Assembly: GCF_041248615.1 (NCBI RefSeq)
Contig: NZ_CP158426.1
Source of the DNA: Escherichia coli
GTDB taxonomy: Bacteria > Pseudomonadota > Gammaproteobacteria > Enterobacterales > Enterobacteriaceae
Length of the DNA stretch: 64,000 nucleotides
Direction: 5' to 3' (one strand)
Shown here piece by piece: positions 247 to 58,054 of the stretch. The notes under the pieces are model-generated. The model searched no databases and was not told the DNA's origin. It worked only from the letters and a program-made list of their open reading frames with translations. The translations under genes were made by a program, and so were the position numbers. How positions within the stretch are numbered: position 1 is the stretch's first letter; each line of letters starts with the position of its first letter.

Positions 247-3200
247 TTACTCGTCTTCCAGTTCGATGTTGATACCCAGCGAACGAATCTCTTTCAACAA
301 TACGTTGAAGGATTCTGGCATGCCCGGCTCCATCTGATGGTTGCCGTCCACGATGTTCTTATACATCTTGGTACGACCGTTCACGTCATCAGACTTAACG
401 GTGAGCATTTCCTGCAGGGTGTATGCTGCGCCGTATGCTTCCAGCGCCCACACTTCCATCTCCCCGAAACGCTGACCACCGAACTGTGCCTTACCACCCA
501 GCGGCTGCTGAGTAACCAGGCTGTAAGAACCGGTGGAACGCGCGTGCATCTTGTCGTCGACCAGGTGGTTCAGTTTCAGCATGTACATGTAACCAACGGT
601 TACCGGACGCTCGAACTGTTCACCAGTGCGGCCGTCGTACAGGCGGATCTGACCAGAAGTCGGCAGGTCGCCAAGTTTCAGCAGCTCTTTAATTTCTGCT
701 TCTTTCGCACCGTCGAACACTGGCGTTGCGATTGGCATACCTTTGCGCAGGTTTTCAGCCAGACGCATAACTTCTTCATCGCTGAAGGTACTCAGGTCAA
801 CTTTCTGACGAACGTCAGCGCCCAGATCGTACGCACGCTGGATGAATTCGCGCAGTTTCGCGACTTCTTGCTGCTGTTTCAGCATGGCGTTGATCTTGTC
901 GCCGATACCTTTCGCAGCCATACCCAGGTGGGTTTCGAGGATCTGACCGATGTTCATACGAGACGGTACGCCCAGCGGGTTCAGTACGATGTCTACCGGC
1001 GTACCGTTTTCATCGTAAGGCATATCTTCGATCGGGTTGATCTTAGAAATTACACCCTTGTTACCGTGACGACCTGCCATCTTGTCACCAGGCTGGATAC
1101 GGCGTTTAACCGCCAGATATACCTTAACAATCTTCAGCACGCCCGGTGCCAGATCGTCGCCCTGGGTGATTTTGCGGCGTTTCGCTTCGAGTTTCTTCTC
1201 GAACTCGTGTTTCAGTTCGTCATACTGCTCAGCCAGCTGTTCCAGCTGATTTTGTTTCTCTTCGTCGGTCAGGCCCAGCTCCAGCCAGCGATCGCGCGGC
1301 AGTTTGTCGAGCTTCTCAGCTTCAACGCCACCGGCTACCAGCACAGCACGGATACGGCTGAACAGACCCGCTTCGAGGATCTGCAGTTCTTCAGACAGGT
1401 CTTTCTTCGCCTGTTTGAGCTGCATTTCTTCGATTTCCAGCGCACGTTTGTCTTTTTCTACGCCATCGCGAGTAAAGACCTGAACGTCGATAACCGTACC
1501 GGATACACCGTTTGGTACGCGCAGAGAAGAGTCTTTAACGTCAGACGCTTTCTCACCGAAGATCGCACGCAGCAATTTTTCTTCTGGGGTCAGCTGAGTT
1601 TCACCTTTCGGCGTTACCTTACCAACCAGAATGTCGCCACCGGTCACTTCCGCACCAATGTAAACGATACCGGATTCATCCAGTTTGGAGAGCGCAGCTT
1701 CACCCACGTTCGGGATGTCAGCGGTGATCTCTTCCGGCCCCAGCTTGGTGTCACGGGACACACACGCCAGTTCCTGAATGTGGATGGTGGTGAAACGGTC
1801 TTCCTGAACAACACGCTCGGATACGAGGATGGAGTCTTCGAAGTTGTAACCATTCCACGGCATGAACGCTACGCGCATGTTCTGACCCAGCGCCAGTTCA
1901 CCGAGGTCGGTAGACGGACCATCTGCCAGCACGTCGCCACGTTCTACCGGTTCACCCAGAGACACACACGGCATCTGGTTGATACAGGTGTTCTGGTTAG
2001 AACGGGTGTATTTGGTCAGGTTGTAGATGTCGATACCTGCTTCACCCGGATACATCTCGTCTTCGTTAACTTTGATAACGATACGGGAAGCATCCACGTA
2101 CTGAACGACACCACCACGTTTAGCAACCGCAGTTACACCGGAGTCAACGGCAACAGCACGTTCCATACCCGTACCAACCAGCGGCTTATCAGCACGCAGA
2201 GTCGGAACGGCCTGACGTTGCATGTTCGCACCCATCAATGCACGGTTGGCGTCATCGTGTTCCAGGAACGGGATCAGGGACGCACCGACGGATACCACCT
2301 GCTGGGTGGATACGTCCATGTAGTCAACCTGGTCGCGGCTGAACAAGCTGGATTCGCCTTTGCTACGGCAGGTTACCAGGTCTTCTACGAAGTGGCCTTC
2401 TTCATCCAGGTTGGAGTTCGCCTGGGCGATAACGTAGTTGCCTTCTTCGATAGCAGACAGGTAGTGAATTTCGTCAGTTACAACACCGTCGGTCACTTTA
2501 CGATACGGAGTCTCAAGGAAGCCGTATTCGTTAGTCTGCGCGTATACAGACAGAGAGTTGATCAGACCGATGTTCGGACCTTCAGGGGTTTCGATTGGAC
2601 ATACGCGACCGTAGTGAGTCGGGTGTACGTCTCGAACTTCGAAGCCTGCACGTTCACGGGTCAGACCGCCTGGGCCGAGTGCGGAGATACGACGTTTGTG
2701 CGTAATCTCAGACAGCGGGTTGTTCTGGTCCATAAACTGAGACAGCTGGCTGGAACCGAAGAACTCTTTCACTGCTGCAGAAATCGGCTTGGCGTTGATC
2801 ATATCCTGAGGCATCAGGGTATCCAGATCGCCCAGAGACAGACGCTCTTTCACCGCACGCTCTACACGTACCAGGCCAACGCGGAACTGGTTTTCCGCCA
2901 TTTCGCCAACGGAACGGATACGACGGTTGCCGAGGTGGTCGATATCATCGACTTCGCCTTTACCGTTACGGATATCGATGAGCTTTTTCATAACATCAAT
3001 GATGTCGTCTTTGCTCAGGATACCGGAACCTTCGATTTCTTCGCGCAGCAGAGAACGGTTGAACTTCATACGACCAACCGCAGACAAGTCATAACGGTCT
3101 TCGGAGAAGAACAGGTTCTCGAACAGGCTTTCAGCTGCTTCACGAGTCGGCGGCTCGCCAGGGCGCATCATGCGGTAGATTTCTACCAGTGCGCTCAGAC

Positions 3201-4275
3201 GGTCGTTAGTTGGGTCGACACGTAAGGTTTCAGAGATATATGGGCCGTGATCCAGATCGTTGGTGAACAGCGTTTCGATACGCTTGTGACCAGACTGGCT
3301 CAGCTTAGCCAGCAGATCCAGGCTCAGCTCCATGTTCGCAGCACAGATCAGTTCGCCGGTAGACTCATCAATATAGTCTTTAGCAACCACTTTACCTGCG
3401 ATGTACTCAACCGGGACTTCGATCAGTTTGACGTCGTCTTTTTCCAGCTGGCGAATGTGGCGCGCAGTGATACGGCGGCCTTTTTCTACGTACACTTTAC
3501 CGTTAGCTTCGATGTCAAAAGATGCGGTTTCACCACGCAGGCGTTCCGGCACCAGTTCCATCTGCAGCTTGTTATCACGGATTTCAAAGATAACTTTTTC
3601 AAAGAACAGGTCGAGGATCTGCTCTGTGGTGTAGTTCAGGGCGCGCAGAATGATGGTCGCAGGCAGTTTACGGCGACGGTCGATACGTACGAACAGGTTG
3701 TCCTTCGGATCGAATTCGAAGTCCAGCCAGGAACCACGGTAAGGGATGATGCGCGCGTTATACAGCACTTTACCCGAAGAGTGGGTTTTACCTTTGTCGG
3801 AGTCAAAGAAGACGCCCGGACTACGGTGCAGCTGGGAAACGATAACACGCTCAGTACCGTTGATAACAAAGGTACCGTTGTCTGTCATGAGCGGAATTTC
3901 GCCCATGTAGACTTCTTGTTCTTTAATGTCTTTTACGGTGCCTTCCGGCGCTTCGCGCTCATAGATCACCAGACGCAGTTTAACGCGCAGCGGTGCGGAA
4001 TAGGTCACGCCACGGATTTGACATTCCTGGACGTCAAACACCGGTTCGCCAAGGCGGTAGCTGACGTATTGCAGCTCGGAATTACCGCTGTAGCTCTGAA
4101 TCGGGAATACGGAACGGAAAGCAGCTTCCAGACCATACTGCCCTTCAGGATCTTGCTCGATAAATTTCTGAAACGAGTCAAGCTGGATAGAAAGGAGATA
4201 AGGTACATCCAGAACTTGTGGACGTTTACCAAAATCCTTACGAATACGTTTTTTCTCGGTATAGGAGTAAACCAT
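247..4275 (-). CDS. rpoB: RNA polymerase beta subunit (1342 aa)
   Basis: ORF 247..4308 minus; product begins [35 protein letters not shown] 11 codons inside the track ORF, so start set to 4275; full-length match to RpoB by eye. Confidence 0.97.
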
Positions 4276-49060: not shown

Positions 49061-51295
<2,235 letters not shown>

Positions 51296-51569: not shown

Positions 51570-52463
<894 letters not shown>

Positions 52464-52540: not shown

Positions 52541-52758
52541 GGAAAAGCCGAGGGGCGTCAACCGAAAAATGACCAATGATGGTGAGGAAAAATCAGGGAA
52601 GTTGAAAAAAACTCATCTTAATTAGAGGCGATAAAAGATTTCTCTATAGCGCAATCCACCTCGCACGTTTTGACTGATATTCTGACAACACAGCGACACC
52701 TGGGCTTATTCGAAAAACAACGTCCTGCCACCGGATGGTGATGCTAAGGCATCTGATT

Positions 52759-52782
52759 CGGCCTGCGCCCTCGCGTAGGCCG
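52759..52782. repeat. REP-like palindrome / terminator downstream of the nucleotidase gene
   Basis: Perfect palindrome cggcct-gcgccctcgcgt-aggccg flanked by GTAGGCCGAATA, resembling REP (GTAGGCCTGATAAG...) elements; sits near the left edge of the metF-metL insertion. Confidence 0.5.
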
Positions 52783-52841
52783 AATACTGGATCTGCAAAA
52801 TCAACTGGTAACAAACAGATGAATCAACTCAATACGTACTT

Positions 52842-54395
52842 TTACTTGATATCTTTCACGCGCATACCGTTGATCTGTTCATCCGTGATGGTGTTACCCG
52901 CTTTGAAGTAATCAACCACGGCGTGATAAACGTAATAACCGCCCGTTGTGTTACGCGCTTTCCCTTCGGTAAAGGCGGTAAAACCATCTCCACCATCAGC
53001 AAGGAAACTCTGAGTAGCAATGTGGTAAATCGTCGCATCTTCAATGGGTTTGCCATTCAGAGTCAGCGTGATTACCCGCTGACCAACCGGCTTACTGCTG
53101 TCGTACTTCATTTCCAGGCCTTTCGATACCTGTAAAACGCCATTACTTAAACTTGCGCCGTGTTCCATCAAACTGCGTAATTGTTTACCCGTGAGATCCA
53201 TCGTCACCAGTTCGTTGGGAAACGGGAAGGTACTGATGACGCCGCCCATCGTAATCGCCCCTGCGGGGATCTCATTGCGAATGCCGCCAGAGTTGGTTAA
53301 CGCCAATTGGGTGTTTTTACCCGCCGCTACCAGTAAAGCATCAGCCGCCAGGTTCCCGAGGGAAGCCGATTCACCATAGGCACGTTTTAATTCAACCGGC
53401 GATTTCGCGACCGTTTGTTGCACCACTTCATCAAGCTTTTTATTCCAGCCGTCGATCACCTGTTTTGTTTGCGGATCGGGCTTCCACTCGTCGGCGTAAA
53501 TGGTTTTAAGCTCGAAGTTTTTCACCGTAAAATCATGCGGCTTCTCTTTGTAGTCGAGAACCAGTTTGCCCACATCAATCCCGCCGCTGTCAGTGGAGAG
53601 GATGAGCGTATTGCCGACTTTAATCGGTTCCGGCGTACCCACATGCGCATGTCCGGTGATCAAAATATCCAGCCCTTTCACCTGACTTGCCGTCTGAATA
53701 TCTTTATCCAGCGCGCGACGCACATCTGTGCCTCCCATACTGGACTGGCGGGCCGGAACACCTTCATGGATCAGGGCGACGGTCAAATCAACCTTGCCTT
53801 TAAGTTCATCGATATAACGTTGTAGCCATTTAATTTCATCACGCGCTTCAATCCCCACTCGCGTTGCCGCAGATACCGTGTCATTAAAGGCAAATACACC
53901 GTGCAAACCTATAACGCCTATTTTCACTCCGTCTTTTTCGATGATGGTATATGGCTTATCCCAGAATGATTTACTGCTGTTCTGATAAAAAACATTGCCC
54001 TGCACAATAGGGAATTTTGCCTGACTCAACTGTAATAATGTGTTGTCCCAGCCGTGGTCAAATTCATGGTTGCCTATCGTGACGGCATCAAACGGCATAG
54101 TATTCATAATATCGATAATAGCCTTACCTTTGGTCAGGCTGCTGATATATGGCCCGGTAAAATAATCACCCGCATCAAAAAACCATGTCGCTTTATTTTT
54201 TGCTTTTTCTTGCTTAACCAGCGTAGTGATATTTGCCCAGCCGCCAATATCCCGTTTACCATCAGCGATCCACGGCACTTTATAAGGCTCGACATGCGCA
54301 TGGAGGTCGTTGGTATAAATGATGGTGACATCTTTGGCGCAAGCCCAAAACGGCAGTGTTAATGCGATACCCGCAGCAAGTATTTTAATTTTCAT
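52842..54395 (-). CDS. secreted bifunctional metallophosphoesterase / 5'-nucleotidase-family protein (UshA/CpdB-like), accessory relative to K-12
   Basis: 517-aa product with signal peptide [20 protein letters not shown], calcineurin-like phosphoesterase motifs DLHAH, GDYFTG, GNHEFD, GHAH, and 5'-nucleotidase C-terminal-domain signature ([12 protein letters not shown]...[16 protein letters not shown]); good SD AAGGGA 8 nt upstream of ATG. Confidence 0.85.
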
Positions 54396-54454
54396 AAACA
54401 GTCCCTTTCAGTGAGATAAAGGATTGCTACATTACGTTCTGAAAGAGTTATTTA

Positions 54455-54470
54455 TGTGAGAGTAATCACA
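54455..54470. promoter_or_regulatory. consensus CRP-binding site in divergent promoter region
   Basis: Perfect TGTGA-N6-TCACA (TGTGAgagtaaTCACA), centred about 67 bp upstream of the nucleotidase ATG and about 65 bp upstream of the zinc-ribbon gene ATG. Confidence 0.6.
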
Positions 54471-54527
54471 TCCACAGGGGAGCGTTGCCGGACAAAATCA
54501 ACGACCATGTGAAATCGTTGGTGATAT

Positions 54528-55658
54528 ATGTCGACTCTGTTTACGATTAATGCCTGCAAGTCGTTTGGTTGCCGTAATTTAGGGCAGCCAACATCTAAAG
54601 ATTATAGCTGGCCCGACTATCGGCTGGGTTATCCGGCATTGCACTGTCGGGCATGTGGCAGTTACCCGCCGTTGTTTGACGAGCAACAATTTCGTGACTG
54701 GTTGTCAGTTCACTTATCTACTTTTGCAACAGAGAAAGGCCATTTTTGCCCGGTATGTTATGGCACAAAGACGATTTGTTATGGCCACAATCCACAGGGG
54801 TCGCAACGCATTCAATGTCGTAACTGCAAAAAAGTCTGGACACCTAAACAATATCAGAAAGAAATAACGCCTCCTGAAATAATCGAAACGGTTGCTCTTC
54901 TGGTGCCATTTCAGGGAGCCAGCAATGGGCAGAAACTGTATGTTTTAATCAGTTTTGATGCTCTTCGCGGTAATATTCTTCATCTTTCTACTAATTACAC
55001 GCAGCATCAGGCTGGAGAAAGTCTGCATTATCGATACAGAGGGAATGCAGAACCAGAGTTACACGAGAGTAATATTGTACAACGCGTTGATATGCGCGAA
55101 GCACAATTTCTACGCCGCAGTCAGTTTGATGAAATTCAGTATGGCAGCGCAGCGCTCAAACGCAATGCTAAAGGTGTTATTCTGCGTCCGGTTATCACTG
55201 CACACGGGCATTTCAGAGTACTGAATATTTTATTCCCTACAGTAAAAACACATGTAATTTCACACGAGTGTTTTTTAAGAGGTGCGATTATTACGGCCTG
55301 GGCAGAACTGTTTCGCCAACAGCAAGGTGAGATTTGGTTTATTGAAGAGGAAATAGCTGACTATACCGATAATACGCCCTGGCGTTTTCAGGGAAAAACT
55401 TATCACGGCTGGTGGAAAAATCAGTGGCAACTCTGGGTTCAGGGCAAAAATCGTAAAATGGTATGTGCATTAACGGGCGGAAATATCAGCAAAGCTGAAA
55501 TGCTCTCTTTAGCAACCAGCAGACATTTTATCGACTGGCTACATAAACAAGCAGTATTTACTCACAGCGCCCCGCTTTCCGCAGGGCGCGTTACGCAAAT
55601 ACTGCTTTCTCTGGCTCAGGATTACAACAACTGCGCCAGGCGGTTAATATCCGACTGA
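54528..55658 (+). CDS. hypothetical tandem zinc-ribbon protein; second ribbon resembles the IS1 InsA zinc finger
   Basis: 376-aa ORF; CxxxxC...CxxC (CKSFGCRNLG...CRACG) then CPVCYGTKTICYGHNPQGSQRIQCRNCKKVW, which aligns with IS1 InsA [32 protein letters not shown]; C-terminal about 270 aa Trp-rich with no motif I recognise; last 12 codons are antisense to the metL 3' end. Confidence 0.6.
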   Translation: MSTLFTINACKSFGCRNLGQPTSKDYSWPDYRLGYPALHCRACGSYPPLFDEQQFRDWLSVHLSTFATEKGHFCPVCYGTKTICYGHNPQGSQRIQCRNCKKVWTPKQYQKEITPPEIIETVALLVPFQGASNGQKLYVLISFDALRGNILHLSTNYTQHQAGESLHYRYRGNAEPELHESNIVQRVDMREAQFLRRSQFDEIQYGSAALKRNAKGVILRPVITAHGHFRVLNILFPTVKTHVISHECFLRGAIITAWAELFRQQQGEIWFIEEEIADYTDNTPWRFQGKTYHGWWKNQWQLWVQGKNRKMVCALTGGNISKAEMLSLATSRHFIDWLHKQAVFTHSAPLSAGRVTQILLSLAQDYNNCARRLISD

Positions 55659-58054
55659 ATCGCCCCTGCGGTGACGTCGCGCCCCGCGCCAGGCCCACGG
55701 ATCACCAGAGGGTTATCGCGATACCAGCGGCTTTCGATGGCAAAGACGTTATCGCACGGCAGCAGTGATGCCAGCGGATGGTCTTCACGCACCGCTTCCA
55801 CGCCCACACGCGCTTTGCCATTGGCATCGAAACGCGCCACGTAGCGCAGCACCAGCCCCATTTCGCGGGCCGCTTCCAGCCGTTGCACCATCTGCTCGTT
55901 AAGTTCATCGCCGTTTTCAAAGAAATGGTCGATGCTACCACCTTCGCAATGGGCAGGCACCAGCGATTCCACGCGCACCTGATCTGGTTCGATGTCGTAA
56001 CCCGCTTCACGCGCCAGAATCACCAGCTTGCGCATCACGTCTTTGCCGGAAAGGTCATCACGCGGATCAGGCTCGGTTAAGCCCTGCTGCCACGCCTGAT
56101 CCACCAGCTCGGTAAACGGCACGCTACCGTCGAATTGCAGGAACAGCCAGGAGAGCGTGCCGGAGAAGATCCCACTGATCGACAAAATAGTATCGCCGCT
56201 GTCGATCAGATCGCGCACGGTATGGTTGATCGGCAAGCCCGCACCGACGGTGGCGTTGTACAGCCAGTGACGCCCGGTTTTTTCGAAGGCGTCGTGGATC
56301 TGGCGATATTTATTGCTGTCGCTGGCTCCCGCCAGTTTGTTGGCGCTGATGACGTGGAAACCGTGGCTGGCAAAATCGAGATACTGATCAGCAAGCTGCT
56401 GGCTGGCGGTAACGTCCAACACCACTAAATCATCATACGGATGGGCGCGCATCCACAGGAACAGCGACTCTTCATCCTGCTCGACCGCTTCATCGTTGAA
56501 GAAGGCTAACGCGCGGCTGGCGTCCAGCCCGTCATAACTCAACAGGCTACGGCGGCTGTCCACCACGCCTGCCAGCACAAATTCAAAGCCGGTACGCGCC
56601 GAGAGCGTGCTCTGCTCACGGGCGAACAGTTCCAGCCAGCGGGAACCGATATTGCCCTTGCCGAACAATACCAGGCCGATGCGTTTTTCTGCGCGGAAGA
56701 CGGACTGATGCAGCCCCTGAATCAGGCTTTCGGTCGGTCCGGTGCGCAGTACTGCCACCAGGCTGATGCCGTCATCCGACTGCCAGGTAAATTCGACCGG
56801 CTGGCCTTTCAGTTGCTGCCAGAAGCGGTGGCAATGCAGCGGGTTACGGGTTACGCCCGCCCCAACCATCGCCACCAGCGCCAGCCCCTGACGCAGGCGC
56901 AGTTCGCCAGGTAATCCCGCTTCGTCGAGGATTTTCAGCGCACTGTCGGCCACTTCTGAGGTGTAGCAAAATTGCAGCAACTGGCGATCGTTATGTACGC
57001 CAACCGCCAGTGGGCGCACCTGAGCACGTTTCAGGATCTGGTCGATCTCTTTATGCGCCAGTTTGAAATCCTGGCTGGTGGGCACCTGAAACTCAATCAA
57101 GCAGACATCATCGTGGCTGGTGACAATACGCGCACCAGTACCGGAGGCCAGCACGCGTTCAATGCGCGTGGAACCTTGATCCGGCGTGTAGCTACAGCGC
57201 AGCTGCAGGTCAATTTCGCTGCCAGAAACCGGCTGTAAAGTACGGGCGTGAAGAACGGGAGCCGCCAGACGCGCCAGTTCGCTGGCCTCATCCAGACGCA
57301 GCAACGGCAGCAGGCAGGCATCTTTCACTTTACGCGGGTCGGCACTGTATACCCCGGCGACGTCGCTCCAGATGGTGACGCGAGAAACACCCGCCAGCGC
57401 ACCGATTTGTGTCGCGGAATAGTCGGAACCGTTACGCCCCAGCAGCACCGTTTCACCGGCGTTGTTACGGCTGATAAACCCGGTCACCACCAGACGTTTG
57501 CCCGGATGTTGCACCAGTAGCTGTTGCAGCAACGGGTAAGAAAGCCCTTCATCAACCTGCGGTTGCGCAGCGCGTTCAGCGCGTAAAAACTCGCGGGCAT
57601 CAAGCCAGGCCGCTGGCAGCCCTTGTTGATTAAGCACCGCAGACATCAGGCGCGCCGACCACACTTCACCGTGACCCACCACTTCCGCATACACCGCATC
57701 GTTAATACCGCTGTCGAGCAGCGCCGCCAGGCGCTCAAGATCGCTGACAAAAGCGCTAATGAGGCTATCGGCTTCTTCGGCGGGTAGCAGGCCGCTAATC
57801 AGATCGCACTGATAGCGACGCAGCGTTTGTTGAACCTGATGCGCAGAGAGACGATCGGTCTGACTTAGTTTCAACCAGTTAATCAACTGGTTAGTGGTGC
57901 TACCGGCGGCGGAAACCACCATCATATCGTCAGGCTGAGAGTACTCCGCCATAATGCCCGCGACACGCAAATAACACTTCACATCAGCCAGACTACTGCC
58001 ACCAAATTTATGCAGTTGACGACCTTTCGCCCCTGCCTGCGCAATCACACTCAT
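55622..58054 (-). CDS. metL: bifunctional aspartokinase II / homoserine dehydrogenase II
   Basis: 810-aa product MSVIAQAGAKGRQLHKFGGSSLADVKCYLRVAGIMAEYSQPDDMMVVSAAGSTTNQLINWLKLSQTDRLSAHQ... ending ...AIQSDINRLAQLL; immediately downstream of metB. Confidence 0.96.
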   Translation of the reverse strand: MSVIAQAGAKGRQLHKFGGSSLADVKCYLRVAGIMAEYSQPDDMMVVSAAGSTTNQLINWLKLSQTDRLSAHQVQQTLRRYQCDLISGLLPAEEADSLISAFVSDLERLAALLDSGINDAVYAEVVGHGEVWSARLMSAVLNQQGLPAAWLDAREFLRAERAAQPQVDEGLSYPLLQQLLVQHPGKRLVVTGFISRNNAGETVLLGRNGSDYSATQIGALAGVSRVTIWSDVAGVYSADPRKVKDACLLPLLRLDEASELARLAAPVLHARTLQPVSGSEIDLQLRCSYTPDQGSTRIERVLASGTGARIVTSHDDVCLIEFQVPTSQDFKLAHKEIDQILKRAQVRPLAVGVHNDRQLLQFCYTSEVADSALKILDEAGLPGELRLRQGLALVAMVGAGVTRNPLHCHRFWQQLKGQPVEFTWQSDDGISLVAVLRTGPTESLIQGLHQSVFRAEKRIGLVLFGKGNIGSRWLELFAREQSTLSARTGFEFVLAGVVDSRRSLLSYDGLDASRALAFFNDEAVEQDEESLFLWMRAHPYDDLVVLDVTASQQLADQYLDFASHGFHVISANKLAGASDSNKYRQIHDAFEKTGRHWLYNATVGAGLPINHTVRDLIDSGDTILSISGIFSGTLSWLFLQFDGSVPFTELVDQAWQQGLTEPDPRDDLSGKDVMRKLVILAREAGYDIEPDQVRVESLVPAHCEGGSIDHFFENGDELNEQMVQRLEAAREMGLVLRYVARFDANGKARVGVEAVREDHPLASLLPCDNVFAIESRWYRDNPLVIRGPGAGRDVTAGAIQSDINRLAQLL

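Follow-up and report, generated by a model that had tools for sequence, protein, structure and literature searches.

Between metF and metL, the chromosome of the Escherichia coli strain analysed here carries two divergently transcribed genes, which encode a secreted nucleotidase of 517 residues and a zinc-ribbon protein of 376 residues. The analysed stretch of DNA comprises 64 kb and is referred to as the window. We consider it probable that the gene pair is a CRP-dependent nucleotide-scavenging module with a transposase-derived regulator, and that it is the ancestral content of the locus, deleted in K-12. In the proposed mechanism, the periplasmic nucleotidase would dephosphorylate external nucleotides to nucleosides, which would then be taken up. 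The zinc-ribbon protein would be the dedicated DNA-binding regulator of the module, acting on invariant sequence blocks in the intergenic spacer and working together with CRP at a central perfect site. The nucleotidase would thus be produced in the presence of nucleotides or nucleosides and at times of a shortage of preferred carbon. The first-pass annotation of the window had offered periplasmic nucleotide scavenging, combined with a regulator or a domesticated DNA-binding protein derived from an insertion sequence, as one reading of the pair; profile searches, the predicted fold, and the gene contexts point in the same direction.

The distance from the start of metF to the stop codon of metL is 3161 bp in the window and 348 bp in the K-12 derivative J53, where BLAST detected no homologue of the nucleotidase or zinc-ribbon gene in the gap. 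Homology to K-12 stops at position 52610 and picks up at 55621/55622, the stop codon of metL, as determined by BLAST and inspection of the junctions. The intervening 3010 bp of the window are replaced in K-12 by 197 bp of unrelated filler, which contains no remnant of the gene pair. The first-pass annotation had described a 3.16-kb gap with two divergent genes, absent from K-12 and ending at the metL stop; its gene calls and edges were borne out, as was its impression that the zinc-ribbon gene is richer in AT than its flanks. The GC content of the zinc-ribbon gene is 0.449 (0.406 at third codon positions, GC3), that of the nucleotidase gene 0.479, that of metL 0.586 (GC3 0.661), and that of the window 0.518. 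E. coli NRZ14408 is 100% identical to the window across the stretch from katG to metB, and RefSeq names its two genes ‘bifunctional metallophosphatase/5'-nucleotidase’ and ‘hypothetical protein’. The empty K-12-type spacer (locus L004 of J53, positions 3137–3271, and locus L003) contains an annotated hypothetical open reading frame of 44 amino acids and a palindrome, GCCGGATTCGTCGTAAACGCTTAATCCGGCC, resembling repetitive extragenic palindromic (REP) elements, both of which are unrelated to the lost pair.

By its sequence, the 517-residue protein is a periplasmic metallophosphoesterase of the 5'-nucleotidase family and represents the type ‘a’ paralogue of the module. It matches the Pfam families Metallophos (PF00149, E = 4e-12) and, at its C-terminus, 5_nucleotid_C (PF02872, E = 1e-38). 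The metal-binding motifs read as intact (D30-x-H32, G76-D77, and G108-N109-H110-E111), and the N-terminus resembles a Sec signal ending in ACA|K. The NCBIfam equivalog models of UshA, CpdB, and NadN gave scores of 152, 102, and 134 against cut-offs of 600, 486, and 436, respectively, and SoxB was also far below its cut-off; therefore, the nucleotidase belongs to a separate subfamily. Residues 19–517 are about 98% identical to the PDB entries 3IVD and 3IVE, titled ‘Nucleotidase’, which thus contain the same protein from another strain. We take these to be structural-genomics entries of c4898 from E. coli CFT073 with uridine or cytidine bound. Searches by accession, CFT073 locus tag, and PDB code found no paper on the two entries or on the substrate range or role of the enzyme. 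The nucleotidase evolves slowly, with 91% amino acid identity to its orthologues from Citrobacter and Enterobacter and a ratio of non-synonymous to synonymous substitution rates (omega) of 0.01–0.04. The gene is common in Enterobacteriaceae, yet it has remained unstudied because K-12 lacks it. PADLOC gave no anti-phage defence match for the nucleotidase or the zinc-ribbon protein.

The zinc-ribbon protein contains two Cys4 zinc ribbons, formed by C10, C15, C40, and C43 and by C74, C77, C97, and C100. On its own, the protein has no significant match in Pfam, and all its NCBIfam matches are under the curated cut-offs (21.3 bits against NF050000, the cut-off of which is 28). Its family is small: at 50% identity, 119 clusters were obtained from 1.84 billion representative proteins. 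The Pfam domain Zn_ribbon_InsA (PF03811) was detected at E ≤ 0.001 in nine of 52 family members, with a best value of 1.4e-7. The family profile aligns at 96% probability in hhalign with the zinc ribbon and helix-turn-helix of IS1 InsA, and the alignment is confined to the InsA part of IS1. Beyond the InsA portion, no sequence similarity to the catalytic InsB part was found in the protein or its family. PDB sequence searches with the protein and the family profile returned just noise from cysteine-rich C2H2 zinc fingers.

The structure of the zinc-ribbon protein was predicted by AlphaFold from an alignment of 52 sequences with a mean predicted local distance difference test score of 94.3 and a predicted template modelling score of 0.93. 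The model can be divided into two N-terminal zinc ribbons, a core with the order beta-beta-beta-alpha-beta-alpha-beta-alpha, a four-stranded insert, and a helical C-terminus. Support from Foldseek for a fold like those of RNase H and DDE transposases was weak. In the AlphaFold database, relatives from Salmonella and Klebsiella are named ‘cytoplasmic protein’, and those from Vibrio, Photobacterium, Serratia, and Proteus have 440–500 residues and the automatic name ‘IS1 family transposase’. The canonical catalytic positions are non-acidic in the 52 members: strand beta1 (residues 118–127) carries a conserved threonine, and strand beta4 ends in R-P-V. Acidic residues are conserved at other places, namely E247 of an H-E motif in 100% of the members, D201 in 87%, and D144 in 75%. 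In addition, R197 and H228 are invariant, and H246 is present in 92% of the members. As modelled, the zinc-ribbon protein looks like a domesticated transposase, with InsA-type ribbons and a DDE-like RNase H fold that lacks acidic residues at the first two DDE positions.

The same features could be taken to mean that the protein is a functional or recently dead IS1-like transposase, with the neighbouring nucleotidase gene as an incidental companion or cargo. The InsA-type zinc ribbon, the fold resembling that of DDE transposases, and the automatic annotation of distant relatives all agree with this. Nevertheless, we consider it highly improbable. The gene is present as one copy per genome in 1842 E. 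coli genomes, at a constant locus and without terminal inverted repeats, and its omega of 0.10–0.14 over inter-genus distances indicates purifying selection. Furthermore, the family has no acidic residue on beta1 or after beta4 and no similarity to the InsB part, and the IS1 transposase reaches only about half the size of the relatives.

In 26 loci, including the window, the two start codons are separated by a spacer of 131–138 bp. Seventeen spacer sequences, which represent about ten genera and both paralogous modules, were aligned and gave a mean column identity of 76%, a higher degree of conservation than that of the zinc-ribbon protein. Near the middle of the spacer is a perfect CRP core palindrome, the only one in the window, where 0.08 would be expected, and its TCACA half is invariant in the 17 sequences. 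The hint of the first-pass annotation that the module is catabolite-regulated therefore has a counterpart at the level of the sequence. From -10 hexamers picked by eye, we infer that the centre of the CRP site lies about 41 bp from a putative transcription start on either side, which corresponds to a class II geometry. In a consensus scan, the spacer yielded no strong sigma-70 promoter, as would fit dependence on an activator.

Three further blocks of the spacer are conserved. Block 1, which is nearly invariant and has an inverted partner close to the nucleotidase gene, is a candidate operator. Blocks 2 and 3 together hold the inverted repeat CAACGA-N10-TCGTTG. The right arm of this repeat is constant, and substitutions in the left arm have no compensatory counterpart, an argument for recognition by a protein over a plain RNA stem. 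Blocks 2 and 3 are a candidate auto-operator or an element of the 5' untranslated region. Rfam detected no structured RNA in the segment, with a single match at an E value of 0.78.

The zinc-ribbon family is associated with nucleoside metabolism over large evolutionary distances. In close relatives, sampled as one genome per species, 30 loci were obtained, and homologues of the nucleotidase, Tsx, metF, and metL were placed by tblastn. A divergent upstream 5'-nucleotidase gene is present in 29 of the 30 loci, and the remaining locus ends at a contig edge. For distant relatives, 24–40% identical to the zinc-ribbon protein, the contexts were looked up individually in eight cases; P0152 returned nothing, and the others are listed in Table 1. 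The association holds while the neighbours shift from nucleotidases to transporters and phosphorylases, and this is the main argument for a dedicated, probably regulatory, role of the zinc-ribbon protein. More tentatively, we propose that the protein founds an undescribed family of transposase-derived regulators, in which InsA-type ribbons are combined with a repurposed, probably non-catalytic RNase H/DDE fold. Such regulators would control 5'-nucleotidases, Tsx, NupC or NupG, and nucleoside phosphorylases in Enterobacteriaceae and, judging from the relatives in the AlphaFold database, Vibrionaceae. The RNase H-like domain may be the sensor of a nucleoside or nucleotide effector. The relative P0168 is part of an operon with a sulfatase gene, and in Enterobacter hormaechei (L007) an arylsulfotransferase gene lies beside the zinc-ribbon gene; the two cases may point to a second association, with sulfated substrates.

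At least eight genera have the gene pair in the metF–metL interval. This placement was found in Pseudocitrobacter vendiensis, Escherichia whittamii, two other Escherichia, Superficieibacter, Kluyvera, Salmonella enterica subsp. arizonae, six Citrobacter species (including C. braakii, C. portucalensis, C. youngae, and C. werkmanii), Klebsiella oxytoca, K. pneumoniae, and K. spallanzanii. The gene order of C. youngae, S. arizonae, and Kluyvera is identical to that of the window, and the pair is partly decayed in the latter two. In some genomes, additional genes lie between metF and the nucleotidase gene (LysR and CMD, or phosphotransferase system (PTS) and LacI genes). The 37-bp junction of the zinc-ribbon gene with metL is the same, base for base, in E. 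coli, Escherichia sp. E2593, and Pseudocitrobacter. Since the pair occupies the same site in at least eight genera, K-12 most likely represents the derived, deleted state. On the most parsimonious reading, the pair is old, vertically inherited at this locus, and lost by K-12 and two thirds of E. coli.

The first-pass annotation had considered the pair an accessory insertion relative to a K-12-like ancestor, and a recently acquired islet in an ancestral metL–metF junction would explain its absence from K-12 and about 66% of complete E. coli genomes. The GC content of the segment, which is lower than that of the flanking genes, would also fit an islet, and so would the history of the zinc-ribbon alleles. 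Between the window and the B2 form of the locus, described below, the nucleotidase gene and spacer are 96% identical (spacer 95.5%), and identity drops to 72–79% from about position 54700, with a breakpoint near 54650–54770. Synonymous divergence (dS) of the zinc-ribbon gene between the two forms is 1.1 for the whole gene and 1.8 for its C-terminal two thirds, as deep as between genera. The breakpoint and the dS of 1.1 indicate that foreign DNA recombined into the locus. Nevertheless, an islet is improbable in view of the shared site in at least eight genera and the metL junction that is identical in three. The divergence of the nucleotidase gene matches that of metL and metF (dS of 0.16 compared with 0.13 for metL), a partly deleted form of the locus exists, and the K-12 filler is unrelated sequence, unlike an intact target site. 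Moreover, annotation and a repeat search revealed no mobility gene, integrase, tRNA, direct repeat, or terminal inverted repeat at the segment. For the most part, the insertion reading is therefore not upheld.

Enterobacter, a Klebsiella sp., Citrobacter sp. wls619, and a few Escherichia have a second, paralogous module at other sites of the chromosome. This module contains a zinc-ribbon gene about 70–77% identical to that of the window, nucleotidases a and b, and sometimes Tsx and nucleotidase c. Such modules were observed in loci L028 (E. coli SCPM-O-B-8794), L044, L045, L007, L009, and L027, and some genomes carry both modules.

The zinc-ribbon gene is present in 1842 of 5426 complete E. 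coli genomes (34%), nearly always as one chromosomal copy, and at least 80% of the whole interval is present in 1837 complete genomes. Two of the approximately 1840 segment matches are on plasmid-typed records. Its alleles fall into two groups: approximately 1175 genomes carry one that is at least 90% identical to that of the window, and approximately 667 carry alleles that are only 77–83% identical at the nucleotide level. An extra 4.6 kb is found in 661 genomes, a number that agrees with that of the genomes with the divergent allele. Accordingly, there is a short form of 3.0 kb, that of the window, in about 22% of complete E. coli genomes, and a long form of 7.8 kb in about 12%, for example in APEC O2:K1:H5, Nissle 1917, and E2348/69. 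The order of the long form is metF – nucleotidase a (-) – zinc-ribbon gene (+) – nucleotidase b (+) – nucleotidase c (+) – Tsx-like channel (+) – terminator – metL. The segment itself is thus already known: it is a common presence/absence polymorphism, which has been annotated and included in one comparative paper, and the structure of its enzyme has been solved. The segment is neither rare nor unnoticed, given the 34% of genomes with the pair, the publication of the long form as GR 31, and the PDB structure of the nucleotidase. The first-pass annotation had allowed for the pair being carried by most genomes or consisting of two well-characterised genes; carriers are a minority, and the zinc-ribbon protein is uncharacterised. 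This protein is the unexplored part of the module.

A recent deletion within the B2 long form, at the TACAA present at both ends of the extra DNA as microhomology, was considered as the origin of the short form. It was rejected, because the same junction is found in Pseudocitrobacter and Escherichia sp. E2593 and the dS of the zinc-ribbon gene is 1.1. The identical metL junction in other genera and this dS imply that the short form, if it is a deletion, is ancient. The 4.6-kb difference may have arisen by deletion or by insertion. In E. coli 2018-05-2CC (L050, 3008–3712), just 3' stubs of both genes are left after deletion of their 5' halves along with the control region. The stubs adjoin a PTS EIIC/MalI-like gene pair, which is also present in Escherichia sp. 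E2593 (L017). This locus looks like an intermediate of decay toward the empty state.

In the long form, nucleotidase b, nucleotidase c, and the tsx-like gene make up a second operon, which is preceded by a near-consensus CRP site, TGTTA-N6-TCACA, and by an octamer, AATGTAAC, like a CytR half-site (L005, 6373–6388 and 6457–6464). These motifs hint at classic CRP/CytR control of the second operon. No copy of AAATCGTTGGT or TTACGTTCTGAAAG was found upstream of it.

Several observations weigh against a CRP-dependent module with a transposase-derived regulator. The helix-turn-helix segment shared by distant family members and InsA is lost in the enterobacterial clade, including the protein of the window, and DNA binding would therefore depend on the zinc ribbons alone. 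The conserved residues D144, D201, E247, R197, H228, and H246 may form an active site. Block 3, adjacent to the start codon of the zinc-ribbon gene, may be a translational element instead of an operator. The relative P0168 lies in a sulfatase operon, not next to nucleoside genes. Both genes have a lower GC content, and the zinc-ribbon alleles of E. coli are deeply split, which indicates horizontal exchange at the locus. Finally, the evidence for the regulatory role, which we regard as the most likely one, consists of gene context and non-coding conservation.

Some of these observations would suit a protein that is an enzyme or a nucleic-acid-processing partner in the same salvage pathway, such as an RNase H-like nuclease or a post-transcriptional factor. 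The conserved acidic, histidine, and arginine residues could provide its active site, the helix-turn-helix is missing in the enterobacterial clade, and in two distant genomes the gene is located directly downstream of a nucleotidase gene in an operon-like arrangement. We regard this alternative as unlikely, since the conserved acidic residues are off the canonical catalytic positions, as judged by secondary structure, and the zinc-ribbon protein is cytoplasmic, whereas the nucleotidase is periplasmic. In addition, divergent genes with a conserved spacer of fixed length are typical for a regulator and its target, and the InsA domain is a DNA-binding repressor domain. A regulator derived from a transposase remains the reading that we prefer.

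Two hairpins were identified near the ends of the segment. The one located 3' of the nucleotidase gene had been described in the first-pass annotation as a REP-like palindrome. The palindrome is real, with well-matched arms and a stem that is also formed in the RNA fold, and its identity as a REP was rejected: each of 1813 E. coli genomes has a single copy, no further copy is present in the window, and the classic REP consensus is absent. Since the hairpin is unique in each genome, it is not a demonstrated REP, with the proviso that the megablast copy test needs a 28-nt word, and weak short-repeat relatives could escape it. The hairpin is likely a 3'-end or stabilising structure. The second, imperfect hairpin, just ahead of the overlap of the zinc-ribbon gene with metL, may be a terminator for the convergent transcripts. 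In the overlap, the last 12 codons of the zinc-ribbon gene (YNNCARRLISD*) run antisense to metL. In the short form the two genes converge, with a 37-bp overlap and no terminator between them, whereas the long form has a clean bidirectional terminator, AAAAGCTGGCAACTGCCAGCTTTT, ahead of metL. In the short form, transcription of the zinc-ribbon gene may thus interfere with that of metL.

Table 1. Features of the metF–metL region of the window and gene contexts of distant relatives of the zinc-ribbon protein. Gene coordinates are taken from a program-made list of open reading frames.
Feature	Position	Strand	Remarks
katG	49061-51280	-	
metF	51570-52460	-	
Left non-coding part of segment	52611-52841		From the end of K-12 homology to the nucleotidase stop codon; 93.9% identical to B2 long form
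GC-rich hairpin	52756-52785	-	Arms 52756-52768 and 52773-52785, 92% complementary; about 57 nt past the nucleotidase stop
Nucleotidase gene	52842-54395	-	517 aa
Divergent spacer between start codons	54396-54527		132 bp
Candidate -10 hexamer TAATGT	54434-54429	-	Picked by eye
Block 1, TTACGTTCTGAAAG	54432-54445		Contains CTGAAAG, inverted partner of CTTTCAG at 54405-54411
CRP core palindrome TGTGA-N6-TCACA, TGTGAGAGTAATCACA	54455-54470		
Candidate -10 hexamer CAAAAT	54493-54498	+	Picked by eye
Block 2, CAAAATCAACGACC	54493-54506		Conserved; separated from block 3 by N5
Block 3, AAATCGTTGGT	54512-54522		11 bp, invariant; directly upstream of the zinc-ribbon start codon
Zinc-ribbon gene	54528-55658	+	376 aa
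Imperfect hairpin	55549-55607		27-nt arms, 78% complementary, from inverted-repeat search; within zinc-ribbon coding region
Convergent overlap of zinc-ribbon and metL 3' ends	55622-55658		37 bp; holds the right junction of the segment
metL	55622-58054	-	
metB	from 58057	-	
Relative P0123	L010		Divergent from a nucleotidase 73% identical to that of the window
Relative in Citrobacter sp. Awk 4	L048		Divergent from a type c nucleotidase
Relative P0165	L012		Immediately downstream of a 5'-nucleotidase gene
Relative P0159	L049		Immediately downstream of a 5'-nucleotidase gene
Relative P0142	L011		Divergent from an operon of phosphopentomutase-like, nucleoside phosphorylase, and NupG-like genes
Relative P0138	L013		Divergent from NupC-type transporter and nucleoside phosphorylase genes
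Relative P0168	L015 7001-8263		At the end of an operon of Tsx-like channel, sulfatase, and radical-SAM maturase genes

That K-12 probably represents the deleted state is worth keeping in mind wherever it is taken as the reference for the ‘core’ genome. The zinc-ribbon protein provides a testable case of a protein that resembles DDE transposases, has become fixed as a host gene, and keeps its tie to a single metabolic pathway across large evolutionary distances. Should the protein prove to be a regulator, it would represent a new architectural class of bacterial transcription factor and offer a handle on the control of nucleotide scavenging in extraintestinal E. coli, Klebsiella, and Citrobacter. 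No bacterial family that combines this architecture with a tie to nucleoside catabolism is known to us, and none was found in Pfam, NCBIfam, PADLOC, or the literature searched.

The closest described system is GR 31, the region between metL and metF in the extraintestinal and avian pathogenic E. coli strains BEN2908, RS218, and UTI89, reported in a 2026 comparative paper on BEN2908 in PLoS One (PMC12928451). In the available part of that paper, the authors propose nucleoside processing and transport from sequence alone, and the table lists a Tsx-like and three UshA-like open reading frames for the region, with the zinc-ribbon gene unmentioned (PMC12928451). GR 31 shares with the window the locus, the first nucleotidase gene (96% nucleotide identity), and the divergent spacer (95.5%). 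In contrast to the window, it spans 7.8 kb and additionally encodes a Tsx-like channel and two further paralogues of the nucleotidase, which share 57% and 68% identity with that of the window, whereas the window has 3.0 kb, lacks the 4.6 kb, and carries a different zinc-ribbon allele (78% amino acid identity).

The module resembles the UshA/CpdB/Tsx scavenging system of K-12 in its periplasmic two-domain metallophosphoesterase, its CRP site in the putative promoter region, and, in the long form, its Tsx-type channel. In K-12, tsx and the nucleoside catabolic genes are under CRP/CytR control. The module differs from that system in that its nucleotidase is not an orthologue of UshA, CpdB, or NadN, and its candidate regulator is not of the LacI/CytR type. 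Compared with IS1 InsA, the second zinc ribbon of the family aligns with InsA, as does the helix-turn-helix of distant members, whereas the protein of the window has an additional N-terminal zinc ribbon, an RNase H-like domain of about 260 residues, and no helix-turn-helix. Unlike insA, the zinc-ribbon gene is single-copy, syntenic, and outside any mobile element. In this respect it is similar to the domesticated-transposase regulators, in which a transposase-type DNA-binding domain and catalytic fold are maintained under purifying selection at a fixed locus of the host.

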